Below, in pieces: positions 8,630 through 63,604 of a stretch of 64,000 nucleotides of DNA. The DNA is from Mycoplasmatota bacterium (GTDB taxonomy: Bacteria; Bacillota_I; Bacilli_A; MAG-NZ): assembly GCA_018394315.1 (NCBI GenBank), contig CP074575.1, forward strand, positions 806,001 to 870,000, in the 5' to 3' direction. Each line of letters opens with the position of its first letter. The stretch's first letter is position 1. The position numbers and the translations under genes were made by a program. The notes below the pieces were generated by a model, which saw only the letters and a program-made list of their open reading frames with translations, did no database searches and was not told the DNA's origin.

Positions 8630-8658
8630 TTGACATAGATATTTGATTAATGTATCAT
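8630..8658 (+). promoter_or_regulatory. SigA promoter of the nrdD leader
   Basis: TTGACA-17 bp-TATCAT. Confidence 0.75.
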
Positions 8659-8667
8659 AGTATATAT

Positions 8668-8803
8668 TATAAGTGAGGAAATAGGCGTAATTCCTATACT
8701 ACCCCAGTAACTGTAAAGTCAGATACTCACTCGGTACATTCCCTGGGGAAAGGGTGTATGGTAGTGAATCTATTTTTAACACTATCATACGATAGTGTTT
8801 TTT
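8668..8803 (+). ncRNA. Compact cobalamin riboswitch with terminator/antiterminator
   Basis: GAGGAA-ATAGG-CGTAATT-CCTAT-ACTACCCC-AGTAACTGTAA-AGTCAG core; AGTGAG/CTCACT closing stem; terminator AACACTATC-ATAC-GATAGTGTT-T tract overlaps antiterminator GTATGGTAGTG/CACTATCATAC. Confidence 0.75.
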
Positions 8804-8815
8804 AATGGAGGAACT

Positions 8816-42535: not shown

Positions 42536-43306
42536 ATGAAGATAACTGTATTAGCAAGTGGATCTAAAGGAAATTGTACTTATATAGAGACAGAGAAGGC
42601 AAAAATAATGGTAGATTGTGGAATATCATTTAGACAAGTCCGAAATAGATTAATGCAACACGAGATAACTCTCTTCGAGTTAGACGGAGTGTTTATTACA
42701 CACGAGCATAGTGATCATGTCTCGGGACTTCCAACACTTTTATCAAGAATACCAACAAATCTTTATATCTCTGATAAAGCCTTCGGAAAAATGCATGTTA
42801 ACGCTAGAAATGGAATACCAACAGATTTAATTAAATATATTGATGGTCCGGTCCAAATTAAGGATTTAGTAATAACACCAATTAGGACAAGTCATGATGC
42901 TGCTGAACCGTATGGATATATGTTTGAATCAAACGGAAAGAAAATAGTTCATATAACAGATACAGGTTATTTACCATCGGCAATTTATAAATCAATAGAA
43001 GATGCTGATGCGTATTTGTTTGAGTCAAATTATGAACCTGAATTACTATTAGAGAGCAATCGACCATTTTTTTTGAAACAGAGAATATTTGGAAACAAAG
43101 GTCACCTATCAAATTTAGACTCAGCGTTAATTTTAAAAGAAGTAATGACAGAACGTACTAAACATATAGTATTTATTCACTTATCTCAAGAATGTAATAC
43201 CCCTTATGATGCTAAACAAGTTCATAAAGTAGAAATACCTAACTATGATAAGATTAATATTATCTATTCATCTCAAGATATTCCTACTAAAATAATAGAG
43301 GTTTAA
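42536..43306 (+). CDS. yycJ: YycJ/WalJ metallo-beta-lactamase-fold nuclease
   Basis: LASGSKGN, THEHSDH, HDA, TDTG, ESNY, GHLSN. Confidence 0.93.
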   Translation: MKITVLASGSKGNCTYIETEKAKIMVDCGISFRQVRNRLMQHEITLFELDGVFITHEHSDHVSGLPTLLSRIPTNLYISDKAFGKMHVNARNGIPTDLIKYIDGPVQIKDLVITPIRTSHDAAEPYGYMFESNGKKIVHITDTGYLPSAIYKSIEDADAYLFESNYEPELLLESNRPFFLKQRIFGNKGHLSNLDSALILKEVMTERTKHIVFIHLSQECNTPYDAKQVHKVEIPNYDKINIIYSSQDIPTKIIEV

Positions 43307-43307
43307 A

Positions 43308-43787
43308 ATGAATATAAAAATAATATCAGTTGGGAAAATAAAAGAAAGATATTTAATTGACGCAATAAAGGAGTATTCAAAAAGGATAATGCCTTATGCG
43401 AAACTATCTTTCATAGAAGTGAAAGACGAACCAACAAAAGATAATGCTTCACCCAAAGATAATTTAAAGATAAAAGAAAAAGAAGCATTGAGAATATTAA
43501 ATCATATTGACTCAAGAGAATATGTTATAGCATTAGCAATTGAAGGGAAACAGTTAAATTCAATAGAACTAGCAAATAAAATAAAAGAATTACCCACTTA
43601 TGGTAACTCTAATATTGCTTTTATTATAGGAGGATCATTAGGGTTAGATAAAGAGATTCTAGATAGATCAAACTTTAAACTATCATTCTCCAAAATGACT
43701 TTCCCCCATCAATTAATGAAGGTAATACTTTTAGAGCAATTATACAGAGCATTTAGAATAAATAATAATGCGCCGTACCATAAATAG
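43308..43787 (+). CDS. rlmH: 23S rRNA (pseudouridine1915-N3)-methyltransferase (orfX)
   Basis: VGKIKE, FIIGGSLG, SFSKMTFPHQL, EQLYRAF...PYHK. Confidence 0.98.
   Translation: MNIKIISVGKIKERYLIDAIKEYSKRIMPYAKLSFIEVKDEPTKDNASPKDNLKIKEKEALRILNHIDSREYVIALAIEGKQLNSIELANKIKELPTYGNSNIAFIIGGSLGLDKEILDRSNFKLSFSKMTFPHQLMKVILLEQLYRAFRINNNAPYHK
43770..43787 (+). repeat. att-like site S1 (rlmH 3' end)
   Basis: GCGCCGTACCATAAATAG. Confidence 0.9.
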
Positions 43788-43810
43788 TTGCAACCTTTGA
43801 ACGAAAAATT

Positions 43811-43852
43811 CGTGCATTTAGAATTATCAATCGCGCGCCGTACCATAAATAA
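43811..43852 (+). repeat. att-like site S2 (copy of rlmH 3' end; core 43835-43852)
   Basis: CGTGCATTTAGAATTATCAATCGC-GCGCCGTACCATAAATAA reads RAFRIINRAPYHK*. Confidence 0.9.
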
Positions 43853-43863
43853 TAGCATCACAT

Positions 43864-43917
43864 AAACAATATTTTCGGTCTTTTCAATTACAGGTGGATG
43901 AACCATATCATAATAAT
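43864..43917 (+). repeat. att-like site S3 (diverged; core 43900-43917)
   Basis: GAACCATATCATAATAAT; reads KQYFRSFQLQVDEPYHN in register with the RlmH C-terminus. Confidence 0.7.
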
Positions 43918-44066
43918 GAAGTTGTAATAATATATTAATATTAAGAATCCACTTGTTTTAGTAAAAGAAATAGGAATGCAACCTTTAGTTGACACATTTC
44001 CAAGTCACGTTGGTGGTGTTCAACTGGATTTACGTATATCATTTTTATGAAAGAGAGGTACTGAAA

Positions 44067-45059
44067 ATGATTTTAGCTGACAAAATAATGTGTTTGAGAA
44101 AACAAAGAGGTTGGTCTCAAGAAGAACTTGCAAATAAGATGAATGTCTCAAGACAATCTGTTTCAAAGTGGGAGAGCGAGAGTGCTATACCTGAAATGGA
44201 CAAGATAGTGATGTTAAGTGAGATATTTAATGTATCAACAGATTATCTTTTAAAGGAAGATATGAAGGATGATTGCATTGAGAAACAAGAAATAATTCAA
44301 CCCCAGAAAGAGGCCGTAGTTTTGAGGAATTATGAAGTTGAATCGTACTTAGAAAGAGTAAAGAAAAATGCAAAATTAATTGCTTTAGGTGTTTCTTTAT
44401 GTATTTTAGGAGCAACTAGTCTTGTGTTTTTATCAGTAATTGGCGAAACTACCGTGCCCAGTATGTCTGAAGAGCTGGCATTGTCTATTGGATTAGTTGT
44501 GTTGTTTGTATTAGTTGCAATAGCTGTAGCATTATTTATAAAGGCAGGTTCTTTAATGAAACAGTTTGAGTATGTCGAAAGTAAAGAAGTTATTTTAAGT
44601 GGTGCAGATAAACAACATGTAAATGAACAAAAACAATATTATACAAGTAAATATCATTTTGGTATTACATTCGGTGTAGTATTAATGATTCTCGGAGTAT
44701 TACCATTGATAATTGGTAGTTTGTACGATATTTCGGTCTATAATTTGATTCTATTATTAACTTTACTCATGGTAATAGTTACCCTAGCTGTACATATAAT
44801 AATTCGAGTAAGTATTAGAAATGATGGGTACGAAACTCTACTGAATTTAGGAGAATATACGAAAGATAACAAACAGATAGAAAAAGTAACTGAGAAAATT
44901 GGAGGTGTTTATTGGCCAATTGTTGTGGCAATTTACTTATTCTGGAGTTTCTATACGAATGATTGGGGAACTACATGGATCGTGTGGCCTGTAGCGGGTG
45001 TACTATTCGCTGTTGTACCAGGAATAAGCTCGTTCTTGATAGATAAAAACAAAGATTAA
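44067..45059 (+). CDS. XRE-family HTH protein with C-terminal membrane domain
   Basis: LRKQRGWSQEELA..MNVSRQSVSKWE..VSTDYLL plus several TMs; ATG follows GAGAGG. Confidence 0.9.
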   Translation: MILADKIMCLRKQRGWSQEELANKMNVSRQSVSKWESESAIPEMDKIVMLSEIFNVSTDYLLKEDMKDDCIEKQEIIQPQKEAVVLRNYEVESYLERVKKNAKLIALGVSLCILGATSLVFLSVIGETTVPSMSEELALSIGLVVLFVLVAIAVALFIKAGSLMKQFEYVESKEVILSGADKQHVNEQKQYYTSKYHFGITFGVVLMILGVLPLIIGSLYDISVYNLILLLTLLMVIVTLAVHIIIRVSIRNDGYETLLNLGEYTKDNKQIEKVTEKIGGVYWPIVVAIYLFWSFYTNDWGTTWIVWPVAGVLFAVVPGISSFLIDKNKD

Positions 45060-45084
45060 ATTATGACAAATGTCATAATTTTTT
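45059..45084 (+). terminator. Intrinsic terminator
   Basis: AATTATGACA-AA-TGTCATAATT followed by TTTT. Confidence 0.65.
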
Positions 45085-45136
45085 AATTTGACAAAGTAAT
45101 AGCAACCAATTCAAGAATAAGCCTTACGAAGAGTAT

Positions 45137-45177
45137 ATCTCAGTTAAAAACGTAATAGAGAATGCTATCATAAAAAA
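45137..45177 (+). repeat. att-like site S4 (degenerate core 45160-45177)
   Basis: ATCTCAGTTAAAAACGTAATAGA-GAATGCTATCATAAAAAA; aligns without gaps to S8 and shares its downstream ~105 bp. Confidence 0.75.
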
Positions 45178-45260
45178 TTGTAAAACATGAGCTGAAATAT
45201 CGCTCATATAGAAAACTCACAGGGTGAATATTCACTCTGTTTTAATTGGAGGAAAAAAAA

Positions 45261-45623
45261 ATGAAGGATATAAAGAATGTTTCAAAATTAATAATAGAAG
45301 CAATAGACTTGAATTTAATTGGGAGTAGTAACCCACTGACATTTCATTATTACGAGAATGATAACTTGTGGAATGACTTGCTTTCATTCGTAAATGATGA
45401 AGATATGATGAGGACGATGATTTTCAACAATGATAAGCTTGGGATATCTCCTGTACATACCTATTGTGCAACTTTGAACTGTAATGATAAGCTAAGAGAT
45501 TTTGAAAAAAATTCAATAGGACGCTTTTGGAAATTTGTTTTTGAAACACTGGGTTATAATAATACTAGAAGGGTATATAGGGTAAAATCAGCTATAACAA
45601 ACGGAAAACTATTCACTCAGTAA
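45261..45623 (+). CDS. Hypothetical protein (120 aa)
   Basis: GGAGG RBS and open frame; its first 8 codons recur at 59611. Confidence 0.65.
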   Translation: MKDIKNVSKLIIEAIDLNLIGSSNPLTFHYYENDNLWNDLLSFVNDEDMMRTMIFNNDKLGISPVHTYCATLNCNDKLRDFEKNSIGRFWKFVFETLGYNNTRRVYRVKSAITNGKLFTQ

Positions 45624-46229
45624 GCATTTATACAATTAACGGTGTTCAGAATATCCAAATCTGTATGAGACTAGATGATTATGAGAACTATGATTGTAAA
45701 GAAGAATTTACTGCTGAATCTTTGGAACAGCTCTCAAATGTTTTAACTGAAGTTAGGTTTCAACACAATATAAATTCTCTTGATGGGTTTACACCCGAGT
45801 ACATATTAAACATAGTTACATTTAGTCCTTTTTGTTGTTAGTCTCTACAGTAAATGCCTGTTCTTCAAAGTATACTAATAAAAACAACTCCTTAAACGGA
45901 GTTTTATATGCATATGGAGAGTTATAAGAACGTTCTTCAGGAATGATACTTTTAAATACTGTTATAATACAATTAAATTGAGAGATAAAAAGGGGTATTG
46001 ACTTAACAGCTACAAATAGGGTTAAAAGGAGAGAAGTATGGAAGATATTTAGAAAACTATTCTTAAAGTTATAGAATGTTCTTGGTGGTTTTTGTCATAA
46101 ATTACCTTTATATGTCTATTATAATTTGAGTTTTGAAGTTTTAAAATGTATAATCAAAAGTAAGTATTTGATTTTTTTTGAGCAAATTTCTTGTTAGATA
46201 ATATAATATTTTGATGCTGAGGTGGTTGT

Positions 46230-49200
46230 ATGGAAAGAAATACGTCTATAGTTGAGGCAATGATTATTAATGCTAGAAATCATTTGCTGGACACGTCTTT
46301 TAATAATAGGATGATAAACTCTAAAATTACCCAAAATAAGGGATTATCATTTAATGTTGAAAACTTGGATAAATTTTACGAACTAGTAGCCGGAAATAAC
46401 TCTTTTACTTTTCTTCCATTAGAAAACAAGAAGACTCCTGATTCTAATTTAACGTCAAGTGACAAAGTTAACTTTGAGTACAATAAGAATATTGAAAAGG
46501 TTGGAATTGTTGATGCTGTTTGTATTTTAGACACTACAAAAAAGCCTTCTATCCTTAGTCTGAAGTCGAGTATTGATGAGGGTGATTCAAAGTTAATGTA
46601 CAAAGTTAAAGGTGAAAGTGCATACATAGAATTAGTAGAAAAAATATATGAGGATATTAAAAAGAATTTTACTAAGTATGGTATTGATGAAGATAACGTA
46701 TATAACAAGGATATGTTATTTTCAGGTTTTAAAAAGAAAATTGAAAACGATATAGATAGTATAAAATTATCTCTTTATATTGCATTCTTAAGTATTCTTA
46801 AGAATGAGGGAATACCAAAGGACTATATATTTTTTGGTGGGATAAATAAAAAAAATGAGATTACTCAAGTTAGTAATCTAATTGATAAATTAATTTTTGC
46901 AGGTACTAAGGGGTTCAAGAAAGCTTTAGTTCCTAAGAAGAATAAAAAAGATATCGCAAATTTACCTTCTCAAGTCGCTGAAAATCTTGAAATTGTTTTT
47001 GTCTCTAATATAGATGAGGCAGTTTTATCTGTGTTTGATATGGTTAATTCTGTGGAACATAATGATTTAAGTAATGACTTTATATTGAATAAGAAAAATC
47101 AACCTCAAAAAATATTTTATGTAAATTATAATCAGGATGATTTAAGATCAAGAATGGAAGAAATTTATTTGAATAGTAAACGTCATATTGAGGAACAAGG
47201 AATAAATATCTTATTTCTTTCATTAGGATTTACGCAATGGAGAAGCCCAGTGAAACCAGAGGAGATTATTAACTCACCGTTAATTTTTATACCTGTGAAT
47301 ATTGAGATTAGTAACTATAAGAACATATATAAAATATCTTACTCTAATTCAGAAATAATTCTTAATAAGTCATTAATAAAAAAATTGGAACTTGAGTTTA
47401 ATATAAACTTTGATGAATTATTATTAGATGTTGTTGATGAACGTGACTTTGAAGTATCTAAATATATTGAAAAATTTATGAAAATTACTAGAGAGTCTGG
47501 GAACGATTTTGGAATGGATTCTTCCGCAGTTCACTTAAGTTTCTATTCATATAGTAAATTCTTAATGTATAACGATTTGGATCCAATAAATTGGGAGGAT
47601 GTTCTTCAAGGTGAAGAGGATAATGTATTAACTGATATTTTTGTTAATCATAAATATCACGAGGTAAGCGATGTAGATGATAAAAAATTAATAGATAGTA
47701 ATAGTGAAATAGATATGATAAACAATGTTCTTGATGCGGATTCATCACAACTACTAGCTATCTCTAAAGTAAATCGTGGGAACTCAATTATAATACAAGG
47801 ACCTCCAGGAACTGGTAAATCTCAAACAATTGTGAACTTGATTTCGGAGGGAATAATTCGAAATAAAAAAATCTTATTCATGAGCGAAAAACTTGCTGCG
47901 ATGGATGTTGTATATAGCCGATTAAGATCTCTGAATCTAAGTCACGTTGCATTACAACTTCATTCAGATAAGGTCAATAAATCGCAAGTAATTAACGAGC
48001 TGCAGAAAACATATTATATGAATAAAATAAACGTTAAGAATACGGATTATGATATCGTAAACAAATTAGATGATCTACGTCGAGAGATAAATAACTATTA
48101 TGAATTACTAAATAAAAAATCCTCGAAGTCTAAATTATCTATTGTAGAGGCTTATCGTTTAATCATTAAATTAGAAAATTACTTCAAAATTAACGACATT
48201 GATGTTTATAAACTTGACGTTCATAACGAGTATTTGATGGAGTCTAGCGAAGTTCAGTTTGATAATTTATTAAGTGATCTTGAATCGTTAGAGATTTTTT
48301 ATAACAAATATGGAACAATGAGTGATAATCCTTTAACAAGTATTTCAATTGAAAAGCCTTTATCACATCATGATATGAATAAATATAAAAGCCAAATTAA
48401 TGAGTTGATTAGTGAGCTTACTTCGGTTACTAATAAGATTGCAATTACTAAAGGGAATCAAACTATAATAGACGATTTATCGATATCAAACATTAAGAAG
48501 ATTTTGGCTGTAATAGAAGATCATTCTTCCTTATTAAATAACATTAACAATATTGATTATCCACTCCTAGCAGAAAATAGAGACTTGTTATACGATATTT
48601 TTATGAACTATTGGGATAGTTCAGAAATTAATAACTTAATAAAGAGCAATATATACAATAACTCTAGTGCTGTTGATGAATTGTTATCTTTATTAGAAGC
48701 AATATCTGAAGAAACAGAGTTTCTTAAAAGAAATAATAGTTTTTTAAAACGAAAAAGTCAAAACTTTAAAATACATAAAGATAAGATTGTTAGCAAATAT
48801 TTTAATAAAGATAATGTCAAACTAAGTGATATCGAGACTTCGCTTTCGTGGCTTTATAAAAAATTGTATGTCAAATATATGTTGATTAAAGAAGACGAGC
48901 TATTAAAGAATATTTTTGGTAAAAGAAGTAGAACTGATAACATTAAAATAATTGCTTCGTTATTTCAGTCTTTAGAAGAAATTGTTAAGTTCCTTGAAAA
49001 AGAGTTAAACTTTGAAAATGCTACAATTGAAACTTATTTCAAGTATTTAATGAATTTTGCAACAAATGATTTCAGTAACTTAAATAGTATAGTTGATATA
49101 ATAAACAATGTGACTGAATCACTTGGAATTGATTTGGAAAGTATATTCAGTTCAAATGAATTTATGACATTCAAAATAAGCGAAATAATCGGTGAGTTTG

Positions 49201-51545
49201 GCATTATCAGAGATGGTATGAATACACTTAATGATATTGTAGCCTTAAAAGAGATTAAGAATGGACTTGATGAGAATATTACTAATGAGTACTTGAGAGA
49301 AATCTTACAAAACGAACTATATTCTAAACATATTTCGAAAGTTTTTTCTTATATTAGATACAATAGTATAGTTCAGGAAATAATGAATTATAATTCTGAA
49401 CTAGAGAATTTTAATGCAATGGTTTTTGATCAAAAGATACGAGAGTTCATATATTTGGATAATAGAAATATCCAAGTGAACAATTTGCAAAATACATTGG
49501 ATGCTCATTTTTATAATGTTTACGATATAAGAAAAGATGAAACATTAAGCGTTGAAAATAAAGACGACATAATTAGCTATCTATTGCAAACTTTTAATAG
49601 AAAATACAATGTACCGACTGTAAAAGAATTATTAAAGAAAGCATTTAATCCAATAATTAAGTTGAAACCAGTTTTTATGATGTCACCAATTTCGGTTTCA
49701 CAGTATTTGGAGCCAATTGTCGGGATGTTCGATATTGTTATATTCGATGAAGCTTCACAGATAAAGCCACAGGATGCATTTGGTTCACTTTTGAGAGCCA
49801 AACAAGTTGTTGTTGTTGGAGATGAGAAACAACTTCCACCTACTAACTTTTTTGAGAGTTACTATGGTATAACAGATACGTTTGTTGAAGATGCAGTATC
49901 TAACTATGAAAGTATTCTAACTCTAATAAGAGGAACTGGGGTTCCACTTACCACTCTAAACTGGCACTACCGCAGTAAACACCATAATCTCATTGAAATA
50001 AGCAATAAACATTTTTATGGTGAAGAATTATCTATCTTCCCTTCTAAGTATAAGAGTAATCCGGATTTTGGAATTACATACGAATATGTAGATGGATCTT
50101 TTGATCGTGGAAAAAGTAGAACGAATTCACTTGAGGCAAGAAGAGTTGCCCAAGAAGTTATTAAACATGCAAGAAATAATCCGAACTTATCATTAGGTGT
50201 AGCGACGATAAACATTAACCAAAGGGATTTGATTTTGTCTGAGATTAAGAAAATGAGAGCAAAAGATCATTCGTTAGACGATTTCTTTAGTGAAGATAGG
50301 AATGAACCATTCTTCGTTAAAAACTTAGAAAGTGTTCAAGGGGATGAAAGAGAAGTTATCTTTGTTAGTATTGGATATGCTAAAGATCAAAATGGAAATA
50401 TTATTCAAAATTTTGGTGCTATTAACCATATAGGTGGGGAAAGAAGACTAAATGTTTTGATGACTAGATCAAGACAAAAATGTGTACTGTTCACGGGACT
50501 AAAAGCTGCTGACTTAGAGGTTGATTACAATACAGCAGAAGGGGTAAAGGTCCTTAAAAAATTTCTTGATTTTGCCGAGAGAACCTCAAGCAATATTGAA
50601 ACATATAAAACGAGCGATACGAAGGAATTTTCAATTGAGATTGCTGAGGAATTAAAAAAACATGGCTATAATGTTACCTTCAATGTAGGAAATTCACATT
50701 ACTTCGTTGATATAGCTGTCCATAATCCAAATGATGAATCTGAATATATTTTAGGAATTGAGTTTGATAACTCTACCTATATTCAATCTAGAACTGCAGG
50801 AGAGCGTGAAAGAATTAGAAATAATATTATGAGATCGAAGGGGTGGAATATATATAAGTTATATATCACTTCGTGGTTTAATAATAGAATAAAAGAAATT
50901 GATAACATTTTAGATTACTTATCTCAAATAGAAACTGAAAAGATCGACTATGGGGAAGTTGTTGAGTTTTATGAAGAACAGGTAAATGTAGCTACTAGAT
51001 TCGGATTCAGGCCATATAAGAAATTTGATAAAAGGATTGAGAACATTAAGAAGTTCGTTAAGGAACCAGTTCAAATTCAGAAATATGTCCTAGATCTTAT
51101 TACAGTAGAATCGCCAATCAGATTAAGTACAATAAATTCAAGAATATTAGAAAATTCTTACTTAGAAACTAAGGAGAAAGTATTCAACGGAAGTGTGAAA
51201 AAAGCTCTTTCCAAACTTCAAGAAAGTGGAGTTATCTATAAAGATGAGGGATTTTATTTCATCAGTGATAGATCTCAATTTATTCCTTTTAAAGATAGGA
51301 GAGCAATTGTTGGTTCTTTTACGTTGGAGGATGTACGTGAGGAAGAATATATTCATGCAATTAGAGAAATTACTAAAAACAGTTTTGGTATAGATACTGA
51401 AAATATTGCAACCATTATTTCAAATTATCTTGGATTTGATAACATTAACTTCGATATTCATGATAGAATCGAAAGACTTTCAATTAGATTGGTTAATTCT
51501 GAAACATTATTTATAGATAAGAACAACAATTTACAGCTTAGATAA
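46230..51545 (+). CDS. DUF4011 - SF1 (DNA2/NAM7-like) helicase - Vsr/REase-like nuclease - DUF3320-like protein (Hhe-type anti-phage), with inserted Lon-protease-like domain
   Basis: LLD..N..N and EEQGINILFLSLGF..W...PLIFIPV (DUF4011); DADSSQ, QGPPGTGKSQT, FDEASQ, GDEKQLPPT, HYRS, VQGDER, RRLNV..TR (SF1); VDIAV..GIEFD..RER.R..GW (nuclease). Confidence 0.88.
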   Translation: MERNTSIVEAMIINARNHLLDTSFNNRMINSKITQNKGLSFNVENLDKFYELVAGNNSFTFLPLENKKTPDSNLTSSDKVNFEYNKNIEKVGIVDAVCILDTTKKPSILSLKSSIDEGDSKLMYKVKGESAYIELVEKIYEDIKKNFTKYGIDEDNVYNKDMLFSGFKKKIENDIDSIKLSLYIAFLSILKNEGIPKDYIFFGGINKKNEITQVSNLIDKLIFAGTKGFKKALVPKKNKKDIANLPSQVAENLEIVFVSNIDEAVLSVFDMVNSVEHNDLSNDFILNKKNQPQKIFYVNYNQDDLRSRMEEIYLNSKRHIEEQGINILFLSLGFTQWRSPVKPEEIINSPLIFIPVNIEISNYKNIYKISYSNSEIILNKSLIKKLELEFNINFDELLLDVVDERDFEVSKYIEKFMKITRESGNDFGMDSSAVHLSFYSYSKFLMYNDLDPINWEDVLQGEEDNVLTDIFVNHKYHEVSDVDDKKLIDSNSEIDMINNVLDADSSQLLAISKVNRGNSIIIQGPPGTGKSQTIVNLISEGIIRNKKILFMSEKLAAMDVVYSRLRSLNLSHVALQLHSDKVNKSQVINELQKTYYMNKINVKNTDYDIVNKLDDLRREINNYYELLNKKSSKSKLSIVEAYRLIIKLENYFKINDIDVYKLDVHNEYLMESSEVQFDNLLSDLESLEIFYNKYGTMSDNPLTSISIEKPLSHHDMNKYKSQINELISELTSVTNKIAITKGNQTIIDDLSISNIKKILAVIEDHSSLLNNINNIDYPLLAENRDLLYDIFMNYWDSSEINNLIKSNIYNNSSAVDELLSLLEAISEETEFLKRNNSFLKRKSQNFKIHKDKIVSKYFNKDNVKLSDIETSLSWLYKKLYVKYMLIKEDELLKNIFGKRSRTDNIKIIASLFQSLEEIVKFLEKELNFENATIETYFKYLMNFATNDFSNLNSIVDIINNVTESLGIDLESIFSSNEFMTFKISEIIGEFGIIRDGMNTLNDIVALKEIKNGLDENITNEYLREILQNELYSKHISKVFSYIRYNSIVQEIMNYNSELENFNAMVFDQKIREFIYLDNRNIQVNNLQNTLDAHFYNVYDIRKDETLSVENKDDIISYLLQTFNRKYNVPTVKELLKKAFNPIIKLKPVFMMSPISVSQYLEPIVGMFDIVIFDEASQIKPQDAFGSLLRAKQVVVVGDEKQLPPTNFFESYYGITDTFVEDAVSNYESILTLIRGTGVPLTTLNWHYRSKHHNLIEISNKHFYGEELSIFPSKYKSNPDFGITYEYVDGSFDRGKSRTNSLEARRVAQEVIKHARNNPNLSLGVATININQRDLILSEIKKMRAKDHSLDDFFSEDRNEPFFVKNLESVQGDEREVIFVSIGYAKDQNGNIIQNFGAINHIGGERRLNVLMTRSRQKCVLFTGLKAADLEVDYNTAEGVKVLKKFLDFAERTSSNIETYKTSDTKEFSIEIAEELKKHGYNVTFNVGNSHYFVDIAVHNPNDESEYILGIEFDNSTYIQSRTAGERERIRNNIMRSKGWNIYKLYITSWFNNRIKEIDNILDYLSQIETEKIDYGEVVEFYEEQVNVATRFGFRPYKKFDKRIENIKKFVKEPVQIQKYVLDLITVESPIRLSTINSRILENSYLETKEKVFNGSVKKALSKLQESGVIYKDEGFYFISDRSQFIPFKDRRAIVGSFTLEDVREEEYIHAIREITKNSFGIDTENIATIISNYLGFDNINFDIHDRIERLSIRLVNSETLFIDKNNNLQLR

Positions 51546-51650
51546 GTTGATACAGATAATTCGATTGTCTCAAAACTCTAATGAAGACTCGTTTAATAGA
51601 TGAAAAGGTAGATGATTACATTTACAAAAATGTTAGAAAAATCTGAGCAA

Positions 51651-51691
51651 CTTACAATCAAGAACGTTACAGCGCGCCGTATCATAAATAA
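51651..51691 (+). repeat. att-like site S5 (core 51674-51691)
   Basis: CTTACAATCAAGAACGTTACAGC-GCGCCGTATCATAAATAA. Confidence 0.9.
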
Positions 51692-51754
51692 CAGCTTAAC
51701 TCTAATTGATAACGCGTAACACTACATCTAGATAATTTAAATTATAATGTAAAG

Positions 51755-51934
51755 ATGATTAATAATGCTATTGGTATTAACTTAGTAGGTAAAAAAAAAC
51801 CTGCAGTTCATCATCACTATATTGGAATTAATGAAGAGGAAGAAAAAGTAGTACATAAGATATATGAACTATTTAATGCTGGATACGGATATATAGCAAC
51901 TGCTATAAATTGTCAAGGATGGACTTCAAGCTGA
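51755..51934 (+). pseudogene. Fragment of a large serine recombinase (recombinase domain, Ccr-like)
   Basis: 51827-51934 reads INEEEEKVVHKIYELFNAGYGYIATAINCQGWTSS*, matching the I.EEEA.VV..IF.L...G.G...IA..LN..G pattern. Confidence 0.65.
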
Positions 51935-52086
51935 TTTATAGATTGATATAGAATTTACACTGAATCGTGGTGTATGAGTATGATGGAAACATTAGTGATG
52001 TTTCCTTTTCTTGTGGTGAGGTGCTATAATTTGGTAAAGAAAGAAGAATGTTCATCGAACTTGTAAAAAAACGGGAGGAAGATATA

Positions 52087-52962
52087 GTGTATAGAGAAAT
52101 GAAAAAAGCAGATTTGACCTTAGTGAATGGTATGCTAGGAAGAATAAATAGCTCAGCTAAAAAGGTTTTTAATCAAGCATATGAAGATGGGAATTTAGTT
52201 AGTTGTTTAATGTACGATGATAAGAATGATAGAGGAGTCTTTACAATTGTAGAGGGTCCTAATTATTATGCTTTGCAAGTATCTTTTGACAAGGATGTTA
52301 GTAATTATAAAGTTATAAAGGTCATTCATGAAGGATTGGACAAAATTATAAAAGTTAGAGGTTCCAAAGATATATATTTAAACATTAATGGATATAATCC
52401 TTCAATAATAAATTATTTTAGAAATTACAACTTTACTCAAGATTCGTTGGGATTTGAATATAGCTTTTCCACTTCATCAGAGACTATAGATGCAATTTCT
52501 AACTTTAAGGTTGAGGAGGGGTTAACCTTCAAGGGTTTTGAAGAAGAGAATGCTCACAATTATATAGAACTTTTAGATGATGCTTTTAGGCAACTTGATA
52601 TTGATAGTAATGAAGAGCAGGATCGATATAGAAAGAGCGGTCAAAAATTTCTTTCATGGCTAAGAAAGGTAGATGAGAAAAAGAATTTTGGCGCTTTGTG
52701 GAGCAACGTTGATTTGGTTGGAGTATACATCTTAAATGATGATTGTATACATACAATAGCAGTGAATCCAAAATATGAGGGAAAGGGATTTGGAAATCAA
52801 ATAATGAAATATTGCTTAAAAAATTTGATTTTGAACAAAAAATATAAAGAGGTTTATCTACAAGTACTTTTCGAAAATAAAAGAGCTCAGAAATTTTATA
52901 TTAAAAACGGATTCGAAGTAAGAGGATATTACTGTGAGAATACATATGTGTCAAAAATGTAA
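52087..52962 (+). CDS. GNAT-family acetyltransferase
   Basis: AVNPKYEGKGFG, N.RAQKFYIKNGF; GTG start after GGGAGG. Confidence 0.88.
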   Translation: MYREMKKADLTLVNGMLGRINSSAKKVFNQAYEDGNLVSCLMYDDKNDRGVFTIVEGPNYYALQVSFDKDVSNYKVIKVIHEGLDKIIKVRGSKDIYLNINGYNPSIINYFRNYNFTQDSLGFEYSFSTSSETIDAISNFKVEEGLTFKGFEEENAHNYIELLDDAFRQLDIDSNEEQDRYRKSGQKFLSWLRKVDEKKNFGALWSNVDLVGVYILNDDCIHTIAVNPKYEGKGFGNQIMKYCLKNLILNKKYKEVYLQVLFENKRAQKFYIKNGFEVRGYYCENTYVSKM

Positions 52963-52966
52963 ACAA

Positions 52967-53007
52967 GTTGCAGCTGAAAACGTTATAACGCGCCTTATCA
53001 TAAATAA
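52967..53007 (+). repeat. att-like site S6 (core 52990-53007)
   Basis: GTTGCAGCTGAAAACGTTATAAC-GCGCCTTATCATAAATAA; starts 4 bp after the GNAT stop. Confidence 0.9.
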
Positions 53008-53294
53008 TGGAAATATGAAGGATGATTATAAGAAAGCGGTAGTACATTAATAGCTGGCTAATCTGCTACAGTGTTGGTAAATTAGAAGGTAGTTCTTCTA
53101 CAACATCTTATAATGAATCATTAGCAGGTGGATTATTGTTGGTTGTGAATAGGCTTTAAAGCAGTTCTTGCTGTGGATTTGTTATCACCTACACTTAACA
53201 CATGGCAATTTAGGAAGAGAAACGTAATATCAATTTAGGGAATATTAGGAATGTCGAGTAAATTTATAAAAGATTTAACTTTACTATAAGAGGC

Positions 53295-53413
53295 TTTAGT
53301 TATATAAGAGAATGGATGTATAATCTGTTAGATGAACTTATTGAGGAAGTAATTTAGTAACTAGTATACTGAAATTGCAACAGTTATGATACAAGTTAGG
53401 TCTAAGACGAGAT
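53295..53413 (+). repeat. 119-bp copy of 63367-63485 (3' end of the epimerase gene plus downstream DNA)
   Basis: 110/119 identical, ungapped, counted by eye. Confidence 0.92.
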
Positions 53414-53432
53414 GTTGAGGAATTTATAACAT

Positions 53433-53473
53433 ATTACAAATAAAAATGTTACGACAATCCATACCTTAAATAG
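53433..53473 (+). repeat. att-like site S7 (degenerate core 53456-53473)
   Basis: ATTACAAATAAAAATGTTACGAC-AATCCATACCTTAAATAG; 16/23 to the S5 left arm, 13/18 to the S1 core. Confidence 0.7.
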
Positions 53474-53601
53474 AGTTAATACATGTTATAAATTCATACA
53501 ATTTTTATAAAATATTATTATAAGGAAACGCCAAGTTTTTTCTTCTTTTGTATGATAAGTCTTGTTAAAAAAATTTTGATTTGAAATAAAAAAAATTCTT
53601 G

Positions 53602-53630
53602 TTGACATTTGTACTGTTTTTATTTAAACT
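53602..53630 (+). promoter_or_regulatory. SigA promoter of the Pro T-box leader
   Basis: TTGACA-17 bp-TAAACT. Confidence 0.75.
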
Positions 53631-53644
53631 GTAAAATATATAAC

Positions 53645-53848
53645 ATGTTGATGAGGACTAGTAAAATTATAATTTGTTTAGAGAGAGTTACTGTTTGGTG
53701 AAAAGTAATAACAAATTAATTTGAACCTACCTTTGAGTGATACTAATTATATCCGGATCCATATCCGTTATCAATGATAAGTGCTTATGAACTAAGGTGG
53801 TACCGCGGAATTTTTCGTCCTTTGAAAAATTCTTGCGGTACTTTTTTT
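53645..53848 (+). ncRNA. T-box riboswitch, proline specifier
   Basis: AGTA, AGAGAG and GGTGAAA stem I motifs; GAA-CCT specifier (53726-53728); AAGGTGGTACCGCG T-box; terminator with T tract. Confidence 0.92.
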
Positions 53849-53867
53849 ATTATAAAAGGAGGAAACC

Positions 53868-53989
53868 CTGAAGAATTAAAAAATAATTAGTAGAGATATT
53901 GACTTTGCTAATTGGTATGTAGATATTGTTGAAGGTTTAGAAAATATACATCAATCAAAGGTTATATGGTTATAAAACCAAACAAGTAA
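53868..53989 (+). pseudogene. proS: 5' relic of archaeal/eukaryotic-type prolyl-tRNA synthetase
   Basis: After AGGAGG: (CTG)KN*KIISRDIDFANWYVDIV, then frameshifted YTSIKGYMVIKP; matches ProRS DF..WY.D.V...Y..VKG.MV.KP. Confidence 0.75.
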
Positions 53990-54032
53990 TTAATATTTAT
54001 ACAAGGAGGAGATTACAATTAGAGAACAAATA

Positions 54033-54816
54033 ATGGCTTCAAATAGAATAGTAATAAAGGTAGGAACTTCTTCCTTGGCATATTCTAATGGCAAATTAAA
54101 TTTACGTCAAATTGAAAAACTATGTCAGGTTATAACTGACTTAAGTAATAGGGGTAAGGAAATCGTTCTAATTACTAGTGGTGCTATTGGCGCTGGAATT
54201 GGTAGATTAGGGTTAAATGATAAACCGAAAAAATTAGAGATGAAACAAGCTACCGCAGCAATAGGACAAGCTTACTTAATGCAAATATACCAACGTTTCT
54301 TTGCTAAATATAGTCAACTATGCGCTCAAATGTTATTAACTAAAGAAATTGTCGATAATCATCTTAAAAGGGAAAACGTTGTAAGAACATTTGAAGAACT
54401 ATTTAAGATAGGTGTTATACCAATAGTAAATGAAAATGATTCTGTTTCTACAGACGAAATAATTGGAGATGTTTTTTCGGATAATGATAATTTGTCGTCA
54501 GTGGTTGCTGTTATAAATAAAGCGGATTTGCTCATTATTTTAAGTAACATTGACGGTGTTTATAAAAAAGTAAATGGTAATCTAAGTAACAATGTTATTA
54601 ACAATGTTGATATTATTACTGAGGAAATATATGGTTATGTATCTAATGAAAAGTCTTCACTTGGCACAGGAGGAATGAGTTCAAAACTAAACGCGGTAAA
54701 ATATGCTATGGACAACTCAGTAGATTCAATTATATGTAATAGTAAGGATTTAAATATTATATATGATTGCTTAGAGGGAAAAATAGTTGGAACTTTTTTT
54801 AAGGCAGGAAAAGAAG

Positions 54817-54827
<11 letters not shown>
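54033..54827 (+). CDS. proB: Glutamate 5-kinase (no PUA domain)
   Basis: VIKVGTSSL, SGAIGAG, PIVNENDSV, DND.LS, GTGGM.SKL. Confidence 0.96.
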
Positions 54828-56058
<1,231 letters not shown>

Positions 56059-56066
56059 GGAATTAA

Positions 56067-56870
56067 ATGAAAAACATTGGCTTTATCGGTTGTGGGAATA
56101 TCGCAACTGCAATGATTGCTGGTATAAGTAAATCAACTTTATTTAAAGAGATTAATATTTATGCTTATGATATTGATCAAGATAAACTTCAAATGATGAA
56201 AAATGATTATGGAATAAACCTTGCTAACAGCAATATTGATTTAGTGAAGGCGGTTGAAGTTGTTGTTCTAGCGGTTAAACCGAATATTTATGAAACAGTA
56301 ACTAACGAAATTAAGAATATTATTTCTAAAGATACAATAATAGTTGTTATTGCTGCAGGAATCTCTCTTGATAATATTAAAATGATGTTTAATAGAGAAT
56401 TAAAATATGTAAGAGCAATGCCGAATACTCCTGCACTAGTTGGAGAAGGGATGACGGCATTATGTTATTCTGAGTTACTTAAGGATAATGAAAAGAAATT
56501 AGTTGCTGACATTTTCAGTTGTTTTGGAAAATATCTAGAACTTTCTGAGGATAAATTTAGTGCATTCACATCAGTATGTGGATCGTCGCCAGCATTTGTT
56601 TATATGTTTATAGAAGCATTAGCGGATGGGGGGGTATTGCTAGGGTTACAACGACATCAAATATATGATATGGTTTCTCAAGCAATTTTAGGATCAGCGA
56701 AAATGGTTCTAGAAACTAAAGAACATCCAGGAAAACTAAAGGATAATGTTTGCTCACCTGGAGGAACAGCTATTGAAGGTGTTGCTGAACTTGAAAGAAA
56801 CAATTTTAGGAATGCTGTAATTAGTGCTGTAATTAAAACCGGAGAGAAATCAAGAACAATAAATAATTAA
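56067..56870 (+). CDS. proC: Pyrroline-5-carboxylate reductase
   Basis: IGFIGCGN, LAVKP, RAMPNTP, GSSPAF, VCSPGGT. Confidence 0.97.
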   Translation: MKNIGFIGCGNIATAMIAGISKSTLFKEINIYAYDIDQDKLQMMKNDYGINLANSNIDLVKAVEVVVLAVKPNIYETVTNEIKNIISKDTIIVVIAAGISLDNIKMMFNRELKYVRAMPNTPALVGEGMTALCYSELLKDNEKKLVADIFSCFGKYLELSEDKFSAFTSVCGSSPAFVYMFIEALADGGVLLGLQRHQIYDMVSQAILGSAKMVLETKEHPGKLKDNVCSPGGTAIEGVAELERNNFRNAVISAVIKTGEKSRTINN

Positions 56871-56933
56871 AACTTATTATAATAGAACCACCTGATCTGT
56901 AAACCCTTTTATGAACTTATTTATTATAATTTA

Positions 56934-56962
56934 TTGACATTGAAGTCATGGAGTGCTAAAAT
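56934..56962 (+). promoter_or_regulatory. SigA promoter of the His T-box leader
   Basis: TTGACA-17 bp-TAAAAT with extended TG. Confidence 0.75.
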
Positions 56963-56984
56963 CTTTTTAATTAATCATTAGTTA

Positions 56985-57267
56985 AAAGCTTTGATAAGAA
57001 ATAGTATTCATTTCAATTCTTAAAAAGAGAGTTGCCGTTTGGTGAGAGGCACATAAGAATCTATGGAGAACACATCTTTGAGCTGTGAATTCAAACGTTT
57101 ATCTAGTAGAGTTCATCGGTATCCTTGCAACCGTTATATTGCTAGAGTATAAGCATTTTGCCGTACTCGAAAAGGTTAATATCGTGAGATATTAATAAAA
57201 TAGAAGTGGGACCACGTGAGTATAGCTTTCGTCTTCTAGTATTGACTAGAGAGGGAAGCTTTTTTTA
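56985..57267 (+). ncRNA. T-box riboswitch, probable histidine specifier
   Basis: AGTA, AGAGAG and GGTGAGA motifs; GAA-CAC (57071-57073); antiterminator AAGTGGGACCACG; terminator ending GGAAGC plus T tract. Confidence 0.85.
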
Positions 57268-57312
57268 TTTCCTTTTGACTCATGATTAAATAAAGAAAAG
57301 GGAGATAGAAAA

Positions 57313-58107
57313 ATGAAAAAATTATTATTAATATTATCGCTAATGTTTGTAGTTACATTAACAGCATGTTCTAAAGAGGAAAAAATCGATTTGAAAGAAA
57401 TCGAAGAAAGAGGATATATCATCATGGGATTAGATGATACATTTGCCCCAATGGGTTTCAGAGATGAGTCAAATGAAATCGTTGGTTTTGATGTAGATTT
57501 AGCTAAAGAGTTATTTGGATCTACGGGTATTAAACTTAGGTTTCAGCCAATCGACTGGGCAATGAAAGAAACTGAATTAAACAATGGTAACATTGATATG
57601 ATTTGGAATGGTTATACGATTACACAAGAGAGAAAAGAAAAGGTTAACTTTTCAACACCATATATAAGTAGCAGACAAGTGATTATCACTCTAATGGATA
57701 GTGAAATAGATAAAATTAGCGACCTTGAAGGTAAAGTATTAGCTACACAAACTGGTTCTAGTTCATTGAATGCAATTACTGAATCAGAAGAATTAATGAG
57801 TTTTGTAAGTGAAGATGAAATTATTTTGTTTGGGTCATATAACGAAGCATTTATTGATCTTAAAGCAAGAAGAATAAATGCAATTGTTGCTGATGAAATT
57901 CTAGTTCGCTATTATATGAGTTCAAATGAAGAAACTGAATATAAAATTTTAGATGATGATTTAGGTTATGATGAATTCGGAATCGGATTAAGAAAAGAGT
58001 CAACAGATTTATTAGAATTAATTAACAACTTGTTAGATGAGATGAAACAAGACAAAAGAGCTGCTAAAATTTCCGTTAAGTGGTTTGCTGAAAATATAGT
58101 CGAATGA
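57313..58107 (+). CDS. Polar amino acid ABC transporter substrate-binding lipoprotein (likely His)
   Basis: Lipobox LTAC; DDTFAPMGF, GFDVDLA, IWNGYTIT.ER. Confidence 0.92.
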   Translation: MKKLLLILSLMFVVTLTACSKEEKIDLKEIEERGYIIMGLDDTFAPMGFRDESNEIVGFDVDLAKELFGSTGIKLRFQPIDWAMKETELNNGNIDMIWNGYTITQERKEKVNFSTPYISSRQVIITLMDSEIDKISDLEGKVLATQTGSSSLNAITESEELMSFVSEDEIILFGSYNEAFIDLKARRINAIVADEILVRYYMSSNEETEYKILDDDLGYDEFGIGLRKESTDLLELINNLLDEMKQDKRAAKISVKWFAENIVE

Positions 58108-58108
58108 T

Positions 58109-58750
58109 ATGGATTACTATTTAACTTTAATTAATCAATTATTTCTAGGTGCATTAGTAACACTTAAGTTCTTTATCTTAATTGGAATTGTGTCACTGTT
58201 CTTTGGCCTATTAGTATCGATACTTGGTCTTGTTTCAAATAGTTTCATTAAAAGAATAATAAATATATATGTACTTATTATGAGAGGTACCCCATTACTT
58301 TTACAACTTATTACTATTTATTTTGGCTTACCTATAATTGGTTTAAGCTTAAGTAGAACTGTCGCTGTGTTAATTGCATTTGCACTAAATTACTCAGCAT
58401 ACTTTAGTGAAATATTTCGAGGTGGATTCGAAAGCATCGATAAAGGACAGTTCGAAGCTGCGTTTGTACTTGGAATGAAAAAAAGAGATACATATAAGAA
58501 AATAGTGTTACCACAAGTGATTAAGAGAGTATTACCTTCAATTTCAAATGAGATAATAACTCTTGTAAAAGATACTTCTTTAATTTATGTTGTTGGATTA
58601 GGAGAATTATTAAGAATGGGTAAAATAGCCTCAAATAGAGATGCTTCACTAGTTCCATTGTTGTTCGTTGGATTGATATATCTCTTAATTATCTATGCAT
58701 TAACTAAATTATTAAAGAGATGGGAGCGCTCGTATGGATACTTTGAGTAA
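58109..58750 (+). CDS. Amino acid ABC transporter permease
   Basis: RGTPLLLQL, AYFSEIFRGG..SIDKGQFEAA, LVKDTSL. Confidence 0.95.
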   Translation: MDYYLTLINQLFLGALVTLKFFILIGIVSLFFGLLVSILGLVSNSFIKRIINIYVLIMRGTPLLLQLITIYFGLPIIGLSLSRTVAVLIAFALNYSAYFSEIFRGGFESIDKGQFEAAFVLGMKKRDTYKKIVLPQVIKRVLPSISNEIITLVKDTSLIYVVGLGELLRMGKIASNRDASLVPLLFVGLIYLLIIYALTKLLKRWERSYGYFE

Positions 58751-59399
58751 TATTGTTGAAATAAATAACTTAACAAAAAAGTTTGGCGAAAAGATTATCT
58801 TTAAAGAGCTCTCAATCAATTTCAAGGAAAAGGAAATAACAGTTATACTTGGTCCATCAGGTATTGGTAAAACTACTCTTTTGAGGTGTATATGTGGACT
58901 AGAGACAGTAAGTGATGGAGAAATAACAATAAATAATCAACCATACATAAAGTTTGGAGAAGTAGTAGACAAAAAAAATACACAGAAAGTTTTAAATGAT
59001 GTAGGCCTTGTTTTTCAAGACTTTAATTTGTTTCCTCATTTAACAGTGTACGAAAATATTAGAATTATAGTAAAAGATGATAAACTAGTTAAATACTGGC
59101 TAACTGAACTAGGAATGTTTGAAAAAAAAGATCTATATCCATTCGAGTTATCAGGGGGACAAAAACAGCGTGTAGCAATAGCTAGAGCGTTAATATTAAA
59201 ACCAAAATTACTGTGTTTTGATGAACCAACTTCAAATCTAGACTCATCTTTAAAAATGAACATAGCAAGCATTATTAAAAAGATTTCAAAAACTGGAACT
59301 TCAGTAATTATCATTACACATGACGAGTTATTCGCTGATGCTGTTGCTGATAATATAATAAAGTTTACTGACCTTTCTACTAATGTTAGTTGTAGATGA
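58734..59399 (+). CDS. Amino acid ABC transporter ATP-binding protein
   Basis: GPSGIGKT, LSGGQKQR, FDEPTS. Confidence 0.95.
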   Translation: MDTLSNIVEINNLTKKFGEKIIFKELSINFKEKEITVILGPSGIGKTTLLRCICGLETVSDGEITINNQPYIKFGEVVDKKNTQKVLNDVGLVFQDFNLFPHLTVYENIRIIVKDDKLVKYWLTELGMFEKKDLYPFELSGGQKQRVAIARALILKPKLLCFDEPTSNLDSSLKMNIASIIKKISKTGTSVIIITHDELFADAVADNIIKFTDLSTNVSCR

Positions 59400-59487
59400 T
59401 ATGAGATAAGGGCTTAAAATTACATGGAATTAATAAAATTAATCAGTGAAAAAGTAGTAAGTTATATTAGTATAAATTATCTGACAT

Positions 59488-59528
59488 GTTGCACCTGAAA
59501 ACGTTACAAAGCGCCGTATCATAAATAA
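59488..59528 (+). repeat. att-like site S8 (core 59511-59528)
   Basis: GTTGCACCTGAAAACGTTACAAA-GCGCCGTATCATAAATAA. Confidence 0.9.
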
Positions 59529-59637
59529 TTGTAAAACATGAGCAGAAATATCGCTTGTATAGAAGAACGAACAGAGTGAATATTCACTCTGTTTTCATTG
59601 GAGGAAACAAATGAAAGATATAAAGAATGTTTCATGA
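59529..59637 (+). repeat. Copy of 45178-45284: two hairpins, RBS and truncated ORF start MKDIKNVS*
   Basis: Direct alignment; includes the perfect 22-bp palindrome ACAGAGTGAATATTCACTCTGT. Confidence 0.88.
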
Positions 59638-62485: not shown

Positions 62486-62568
62486 ATCTTAACTTTAAGG
62501 ATATACCATAAATGATTTCAACAATGATAGCTGAGCATAACTATAATACAGTACACTATGGAGGAAAA

Positions 62569-63429
62569 ATGAAAATTTTAGTTTTAGGAGGAACAAGATT
62601 TGTAGGTATTCATTTAGTAAATGAATTACTTAAGAAATCTTATGATATTACTATTGCTAATAGAGGAACAACAAAAGATGAGTTTGGCCATGAAGTTAAG
62701 AGAATTGTATTTGATAGGTATGATTCTAAAAGTATCAAAGATAAACTTACTGATCAATATGATGTTATTTATGACACATTAGCTTATGCATCAAATGATG
62801 TTAAAGTATTGCTTGATAATATTAAATGTAATAAATATATAATGGTATCATCTGCTGCTGTGTATGAAGATTATATAAATGTATCTGAAGATAAGTTTCA
62901 GCCAGAAAAAAACAAGTTAATATGGTGTAATCGTGGTGATTATAGTTATTCGAAAATCAAAAGACAAGCTGAGACAGCAATTTATCAAGAATATTCATCG
63001 GTAAATGCAATTACAGTTAGATATCCTTTTGTAGTAGGAAATGATGATTACACAAATCGATTAAAGTTTTATGTTGAGCACATAATAAATGGATTACCAA
63101 TGTATATTGATAACTTAAATGATCAATTGTGCTTTATTAGTTCAAATGAGTGTGGGAACGCATTAGCAGAACTAGCAAGTAAAAATTATGTTGGACCACT
63201 TAACTTTTCAAATAGTGGTGCAATTTCAATAAAAGAAATTATTAACTATATTGAAAGAAAAACAGGTAAGATAGCTGAATATGCAAAAAATGGGGACGCA
63301 GGACCTTATAATGGAAAGTATGTTAGTAGTCTGAATTTGTCAGAGTGTAATAAATTAAACATTGATTTTAGTGATGTAAGAGAATGGATATTTAATCTGT
63401 TAGATGAAATTATTGAGGAAGTAATTTAG
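62569..63429 (+). CDS. NAD-dependent epimerase/dehydratase family protein
   Basis: MKILVLGGTRFVG..NRG, SSAAVY, YSKIK; ATG follows GGAGG. Confidence 0.9.
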   Translation: MKILVLGGTRFVGIHLVNELLKKSYDITIANRGTTKDEFGHEVKRIVFDRYDSKSIKDKLTDQYDVIYDTLAYASNDVKVLLDNIKCNKYIMVSSAAVYEDYINVSEDKFQPEKNKLIWCNRGDYSYSKIKRQAETAIYQEYSSVNAITVRYPFVVGNDDYTNRLKFYVEHIINGLPMYIDNLNDQLCFISSNECGNALAELASKNYVGPLNFSNSGAISIKEIINYIERKTGKIAEYAKNGDAGPYNGKYVSSLNLSECNKLNIDFSDVREWIFNLLDEIIEEVI

Positions 63430-63604
63430 TAACTGGTATACTGAAATTGCAATAGATATGATACAAATTAGGTCTAAGACGAGATTCAAGATGGATATTC
63501 AAGAAATTAAGAGCTTTGGGGTGAAAATTCGAGCCACCAGGTGGCGAATAGGCCTAGTTATCAGTAAATAAACAGGAGTAATACTATATTTGAAGGAGAA
63601 GTAA

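Follow-up and report, generated by a model that had tools for sequence, protein, structure and literature searches.

Cassette capture of the SCC type at rlmH is best known for the spread of methicillin resistance and phage defences in staphylococci. Published accounts place strand exchange in staphylococcal SCC at a GA dinucleotide 6 bp upstream of TATCATAA, the 8-bp motif given for SCC/ECC direct repeats, with three half-sites alike and the fourth formed by rlmH coding sequence (PMC13739063; PMC6222049). SCC and SCCmec elements, moved by CcrAB/CcrC large serine recombinases, and ccr-less pseudo-SCC/SCI forms have the last codons of rlmH as their anchor (PMC13739063, PMC11470126), as does the locus described here. 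ECC (ccrAB-Ent, E. faecium) and other Bacillota rlmH islands are likewise described, in PMC6222049 and PMC10061031, with rlmH 3′ insertion, ~50-bp att repeats carrying TATCATAA and inverted repeats, and ccr-less remnants, all as found here. The array as such agrees with published descriptions from staphylococci, from enterococci and from other Bacillota (PMC11470126, PMC6222049 and PMC10061031).

The likeness to SCC includes TAYCATAA repeats with a central C, symmetry about a dinucleotide 6 bp upstream, an rlmH-proximal left half that is coding, cassettes in tandem of which many lack a recombinase, cargo for defence and metabolism, and extra att sites elsewhere in the genome. The present genome differs from SCC in having neither ccr nor any serine recombinase, in carrying GC for GA at five of eight sites, and in belonging to a host far from staphylococci. 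It also has three attB/attL-type sites with rlmH arms 65 bp apart; no such tandem sites were found in the accessible text of the searched literature. ECC elements differ in having ccrAB, and tandem rlmH-type sites were not found described for them in the available excerpts. The same grammar is met in a distant, environmental, small-genome lineage without a resident recombinase, with the added twist that the chromosomal half-site stands in three consecutive copies here and recurs at another place in the genome. Co-oriented cassettes, mostly of one to few genes, lacking their own recombinase and stacked on one platform, also recall integrons; no attC-like fold signal was seen in 43740-43990, none of the ten tyrosine recombinases of the genome is near the array, and the sites are double-strand symmetric and derived from a gene end.

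The host of the window (the whole 64,000-nt stretch of DNA analysed) is a small low-GC bacterium with a single-contig genome of 2.17 Mb. The last six codons of its rlmH gene, which encodes a full SPOUT methyltransferase (Table 1), are GCG CCG TAC CAT AAA TAG and are repeated exactly 65 bp on, at 43835. A search of the window for GCGCCGTACCATAAATA gave exact matches at 43770 and 43835 and near-copies at 51674, 52990 and 59511, five matches in all against 0.01 expected, a number reached in 0 of 100 shuffles; all five are on the + strand, and none occurs elsewhere in the genome. The looser pattern CCNTAYCATAA has six matches in the window, again all on the + strand (0.42 expected), and brings in a weaker form of the core, GAACCATATCATAATAA, at 43900, 65 bp past the second. 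The three att cores at exact 65-bp spacing claimed in an earlier note on this DNA, starting at 43770, 43835 and 43900 and here called S1, S2 and S3, were thus borne out by pattern searches and chance expectation. The S1 core (43770-43786) ends in the rlmH stop codon, the insertion point being the last rlmH codons. Read in the core frame without gaps, the three give VILLEQLYRAFRINNNAPYHK and stop (S1), VATFERKIRAFRIINRAPYHK and stop (S2), and IASHKQYFRSFQLQVDEPYHNN (S3); the longer readings of the units end in EQLYRAFRINNNAPYHK and stop (the gene, unit U1), ERKIRAFRIINRAPYHK and stop (U2), and KQYFRSFQLQVDEPYHN (U3).

Table 1 Features of the rlmH-associated array, with positions in the window unless stated otherwise.
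Feature	Position	Strand	Description
rlmH, 159 aa	43308-43787	+	Pfam SPOUT_MTase 1.1e-57; last codons anchor the array
S1, putative attB-type site	43746..43796	+	rlmH left half-site; GC dinucleotide 43770-71; core to 43786; then G+TTGCAAC outer motif at native-flank spacing
U2, 65-bp unit ending in S2	43788..43852	+	core 43835-43851, GC type; left arm reads RAFRIINRAPYHK and stop
U3, 65-bp unit ending in S3	43853..43917	+	core 43900-43916, GA type, one A short; left arm reads KQYFRSFQLQVDEPYHN
HTH cassette	43900..45176	+	from GA of S3 to degenerate S3b (45160-45176); gene 43989/44068-45059
Cassette with helicase-nuclease	45177..51673	+	ORFs 45246-45623 and 45665-45841; 1771-aa helicase-nuclease 46230-51545
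F45, rlmH-end-like unit	45178..45242	+	same 65-nt register; reads ELKYRSYRK...; terminator hairpin 45219-45240 in place of core
S4	51674..51690	+	GC type, P-type left arm
GNAT acetyltransferase cassette	51691..52989	+	ORF 52048-52962
S5	52990..53006	+	GC type, P-type left arm
Cassette with proB/proA/proC-like genes and amino-acid ABC transporter	53007..59510	+	degenerate site at 53456-53472
S6	59511..59527	+	GC type, P-type left arm; then A+TTGTAAAAC
F59, second rlmH-end-like flank unit	59529..59593	+	reads EQKYRLYRR...; hairpin 59572-59591
S6b, degenerate site	62498..62514	+	decayed
S7 (GAGCCATATCATAAATA)	G000:C1:876135, 6135 bp past window end	+	array continues to here

An RlmH C-terminus profile, built from 78 distinct C-termini from 108 loci, was scored on 127,900 six-frame windows, and S2 (29.0 bits) ranked second only to the gene itself; S3 scored 0.6 and ranked fourth. 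When the core was excluded and only the 12 residues left of xPYHK were considered, the S2 score was reached by 0 of 100,000 shuffles and the S3 score by 453 of 100,000 shuffles and 731 of the 127,900 windows. In nucleotide comparisons with 187 rlmH ends, the 48 nt to the left of the core are identical at a median of 24 positions for U2 and 21 for U3, values reached by 1 and 52, respectively, of 39,803 random 48-mers. The first 21 nt of U2 have a weak rlmH likeness (9/21, counted by eye). S1 and S2 have in common TTTAGAAT at positions -20 to -13 and GCATTTAGAAT in the outer part of the left arm; S3 has lost TTTAGAAT from its arm and a single base from its core. When U2, U3 and the sequence following S3 were compared by blastn-short with every fetched locus, only cores or rlmH arms were matched. 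The proposal that the left arms still read, in frame and without gaps, as the RlmH C-terminus therefore held strongly for S2 and weakly, above chance, for S3, whose likeness to an rlmH end is weak but real.

Left arms of the kb-scale cassette sites follow the consensus ACAaGTTGCAaCTAAAAATGTTACAA, an imperfect inverted repeat of the right arm (P-type). Across 14 P-type sites from three genomes, a mean of 12.2 of 27 positions show dyad symmetry when centred on the dinucleotide formed by the first two bases of the 17-mer, against 5.6-10.1 of 27 for ten shifted centres; the symmetry centre is the GA/GC dinucleotide located 6 bp upstream of TAYCATAA. The P consensus is matched at only 5-8 of 24 positions by S1-S3 and by the rlmH ends of two relatives (G004 and G005), all of which have rlmH-type arms. 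The motif itself is TACCATAA in S1 and S2 and TATCATAA in S3-S7, always on the + strand and with the central C kept. Each symmetric site is ~52 bp, so that at a 65-bp period three entire sites fit next to one another, 13 bp apart. The suggestion that 65 bp is about the footprint of one serine-recombinase site accordingly holds only approximately: the period is near the size of a site, but exceeds it by the 13 bp of spacer.

To the right of the S1 core, G is followed by TTGCAAC, with the same spacing as in the native flanks of relatives (ATTGCAATAC, ATTGTAAAAC and GTTGTTAAAT), and S2 carries a weaker version, A+TAGCATC. The right arm of S3 is the left end of the HTH cassette, where a TTGTAA motif lies 4-5 nt farther out, likewise in the G004 copy of that cassette. 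From this anatomy, S1 and S2 look like unoccupied, attB-type sites and S3 like the occupied, attL-type junction of the HTH cassette; the rlmH-type left half-sites, unlike the P-type arms of the kb-scale cassettes, lend support to the view of the three cores as attB-type landing pads.

The central dinucleotide is GA at S3, S3b and S7 and the palindromic GC at S1, S2, S4, S5 and S6, the two classes being interleaved along the array; among 187 other rlmH ends, it is GA in 164 and GC in five. The presence of GC at five of the eight presumed exchange points was counted against an SCC-like reading. Ordering the insertion history by GA/GC class gave no consistent order, and a strict matching rule does not explain the interleaving. 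With these two classes, it would be simple to test how such arrays are partitioned by central-dinucleotide matching.

Several features of site flanks recur across genomes. A conserved CATAACAAAG(C/G)C motif is found ~25-35 nt past many cores (right flanks in G004, G005, G021, G035, G001 and L213-L240), and in family f15 an 80-115-nt right-hand module (ACCTAAAAGAATACGGAATAT...) follows true rlmH ends and orphan sites alike, with unrelated upstream DNA. In a member of the same genus (G001, locus L087), TAACATAA replaces TAYCATAA both at the rlmH end and at another site 958 bp downstream; this variant, common to both sites, puts a TAA stop three codons before the usual rlmH end.

We consider it probable that the three cores are adjacent complete attachment sites of an SCC-like system in the rlmH end, with the extra units being old gene-end copies and candidate spare docks for a large serine recombinase from outside. 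The enzyme would be a Ccr-like large serine recombinase acting in trans and exchanging strands at the GA/GC dinucleotide, and S1 and S2 would be empty attB-type sites that are still usable. If the spare sites are usable, they would add capture capacity, and cassettes could dock without rewriting the last codons of rlmH. The earlier note had looked to relatives for a conserved 65-bp unit and to S3 for a score above shuffled sequence against an rlmH-end profile, and the outcome is divided: S3 does exceed shuffled sequence, as given above, but no tandem unit was found in the 300 nt behind rlmH in the five nearest relatives, which was counted against the spare-dock explanation.

Serine recombinase domains (PF07508, PF00239) have no match in the whole genome. 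Nothing resident would therefore be able to use the sites, and without ccr or another large serine recombinase the array can be filed only as a ccr-less (pseudo-SCC/SCI) form. Among 29 large ORFs scanned in other arrays, one is a large serine recombinase (L081, a Bacillus), adjoining rlmH between perfect 17-nt repeats; the low proportion was counted against a serine-recombinase reading. A tyrosine recombinase or some other enzyme serving the sites would fit the presence of ten Phage_integrase matches in a genome with no serine recombinase. Displaced 3′ gene ends are typical of tyrosine-integrase islands, and this trait was counted in favour of the same alternative. None of the ten matches is within the array (849,770-876,151 in the genome), all being >160 kb away, the nearest at 680,822 and 1,043,219, and the one recombinase seen in an element at rlmH, that of L081, is of the large serine type. 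As the sites are also ~52 bp, symmetric and furnished with the TAYCATAA motif of SCC/ECC (PMC6222049), we regard service by an enzyme other than a serine recombinase as improbable.

Ungapped identity is 42/65 between U1 and U2, 31/65 between U1 and U3 and 32/65 between the neighbours U2 and U3, and Tandem Repeats Finder, run on 43300-44300, did not report the 65-bp array. The Arg codon of the YR pair is CGT in U2 and CGG in U3, AGA in the resident gene and the sister species G001, and CGN in G004, G021, G035 and most other alleles. Recent tandem duplication by replication slippage, unrelated to recombination, does have a parallel in a Lachnospiraceae MAG (L007, 4347-4494), where four near-identical 37-bp copies of an rlmH end show that such duplications happen. 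The divergence of the units from U1 and from each other, the CGT/CGG codons against the resident AGA, and cores kept perfectly between diverged arms make slippage scarcely credible here, and the statement in the earlier note that this is not a recent local duplication stands. The extra units are, by their sequence, not recent copies of the resident gene end. In L007, differences between the copies are confined to four bases at the presumed exchange point (CGAA, TGTG, CGAG and TGAG), and the last copy pairs with the flank as a hairpin.

A wider family of units bears on their origin. The native right flank TTGTAAAAC...AAATATCGCT... is an rlmH-end relic in the same register; it is found after S3b and S6, and shortened after S7. 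A related stretch follows rlmH in G001, with 27/48 and 25/48 identity to F45 and F59. These two units rank third and fourth of 127,900 windows with a left-arm profile, match the G004 allele at 29-30 of 48 positions (random mean ~14), and hold a terminator hairpin at the expected core position. The E of EQ.YR sits 12 nt past the preceding stop in U1, F45 and F59. U2, U3, F45 and F59 have one 65-nt register and CGN-type codons in common, and the equal register points to one common origin, not separate captures. These patterns are most simply explained by a single ancient tandem duplication of the last 65 bp, which we adopt as the likely ultimate origin of the units. It would have occurred in a CGN-type ancestor, and the copies would then have ridden with cassette right arms: a downstream cassette takes along all sequence to the right of the exchange point, so unit copies would have travelled with those arms. 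A search for a pseudo-site 65 bp upstream inside rlmH, which would have allowed unequal exchange, gave a best alignment of 8/17 at an offset of 67 bp and was rejected.

The earlier note had suggested that the sites possibly derive from rlmH alleles of other hosts or are minimal empty cassettes. On such a reading, U2 and U3 would have been imported, as the ends of other hosts' rlmH alleles that formed the left part of composite circles whose cargo was later excised, leaving 65-bp 'empty cassettes'. The left arm of U2 is indeed nearer to foreign alleles (32/48 to L100, 31/48 to L021 and L192) than to its own U1 (26/48) and includes a 17-nt exact match in rlmH of L021, an Izemoplasmatales MAG. 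Cassettes also move between genera, and orphan rlmH-end fragments are found at non-rlmH loci in 11 of the 23 genomes positive for the pattern given below. In G005, one core with an rlmH-type arm and an RVFRINNND-type end lies 13 kb downstream (homology 75 nt at 76%); this is the only strong-scoring displaced rlmH-type arm in 1.05 Mb downstream of 189 other loci, with none on the reverse strand. Because a circle of 65 bp cannot form, independent movement of the units is excluded, and import would need a ride with a cassette that later excised. The CGN-type state is equally expected of an old local copy, duplication from a CGN ancestor explains U2 as well, the best donor allele reaches only 32/48, and the equal register of the four units points to one origin. 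Strain-level relatives were sought in genome and metagenome contigs for presence/absence comparison, and the best RlmH identities, 65% and 67%, are those of the best matches outside the order; no close relative was found. A cold-seep metagenome study contained 0.15 of the sampled words, in short contigs that were mostly <90% alike, none bridging S1-S3, and was uninformative as to habitat, strain or unit number. Import is conceivable but doubtful.

The units lie in the 3′ untranslated stretch of rlmH and the related F units hold a terminator hairpin, as they might if they were an RNA or the rlmH terminator and their att likeness incidental. A terminator scan found none between 43787 and 45219, and the fold of 43740-43990 has z = -0.38, 70 of 200 shuffles folding at least as well, which makes such a role very improbable.

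In all, S1-S3 included, at least eight co-oriented sites, strong or decayed, follow rlmH over a span of 26 kb. Over 1276 bp the HTH cassette has 87.5% identity with a cassette from the array of G004, which belongs to another genus, against 75.0% for rlmH and 71.8% for the upstream MBL-fold gene. When the two arrays were compared, homology set in at 43900, the G of GA, and this is the sole cassette in common. Behind rlmH, G004 has 11 co-oriented cores over 34 kb and G005 has four. Inter-core cassettes of Izimoplasma sp. ZiA1 carry an AAA_15/21 ATPase with a DUF4435 protein, and TIR and SIR2-STALD proteins. Among rlmH loci of many Firmicutes, 36 of 187 have at least one downstream copy of their own core; for the first 110, the counts are 24 downstream, two upstream and five on the reverse strand.

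Two further features of the window's cargo were seen. The 1771-aa helicase-nuclease has matches to PADLOC PDC-S37 (1139 bits) and to Hhe, and its residues 80-265 include a Lon_C-like stretch. A 119-nt direct repeat (53295-53413 and 63367-63485; 92% identity) takes in the end of an epimerase-like ORF (62512-63429) together with a lone P-type half-site (AAATTGCAACAGTTATGATACAAG) that no core follows.

Closely spaced sites are rare elsewhere. Short site pairs were found in four of 187 loci (L007, 37 bp three times; L035, 53 bp; L176, 56 bp; L076, 195 bp), and another locus of G004, away from rlmH, has one more pair with a spacing of 71 bp. A search of 401 genomes for GA-type cores in tandem at 36-66 bp gave five matches in four genomes, against two control matches; one of them (G049) is at an rlmH-like site, and the pattern could not match the GC-type sites of the window. 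In the L007 repeats and the 53-71-bp pairs of L035, L176 and G004, each short unit holds a whole rlmH-end core, behind rlmH or an orphan site. The L007 units are near-identical and therefore recent, unlike those of the window; in L176 and G004 the second site has a non-rlmH left arm, and two diverged rlmH-type units are present in the window only.

In this phylum of mycoplasma-related bacteria with small genomes, rlmH-type sites are also common as orphans at loci other than rlmH. The pattern TTAGAAT-N10-GMNCCNTAYCAYAA occurs in 23 of 301 genomes, 11 of which have 2-5 copies, and its reversed control in none; of the 30 pattern loci fetched, 18 hold a complete rlmH gene and 12 a fragment with 7-93 open codons. 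It is possible, but we put it forward tentatively and as rather unlikely, that the rlmH docking site is itself a copied module in this phylum, both in tandem (three docks here) and as scattered orphan ends of 11-22 codons. Each copy would be able to take cassettes, and a recombinase-less genome would then serve as a multi-dock, multi-locus capture platform for visiting serine recombinases.

Two orphan loci were recorded individually. In the present genome, an rlmH-end site (..LFRIKNNEPYHK, GA type) lies at G000:C1:266427 on the - strand (L210, ~8650-10480), 583 kb from rlmH and just past a terminator. A second site 922 bp away brackets with it a 154-aa GNAT gene. ARAGORN and Rfam found no gene at this locus; three copies of CTTCAGTCGYCCCATTATGACTT around it resemble a tRNA or tmRNA 3′ end. 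In G004 (C1, ~2,016,000-2,024,000, - strand; L211), a second small array starts from an orphan rlmH-type site (CVRIINEEPYHK and stop, then ATTGTAAAAC), with a P-type site 71 bp on and further sites at 3.8 and 7.2 kb; this genome has four large serine recombinase genes, two of which lie 16 and 45 kb from the L211 array.
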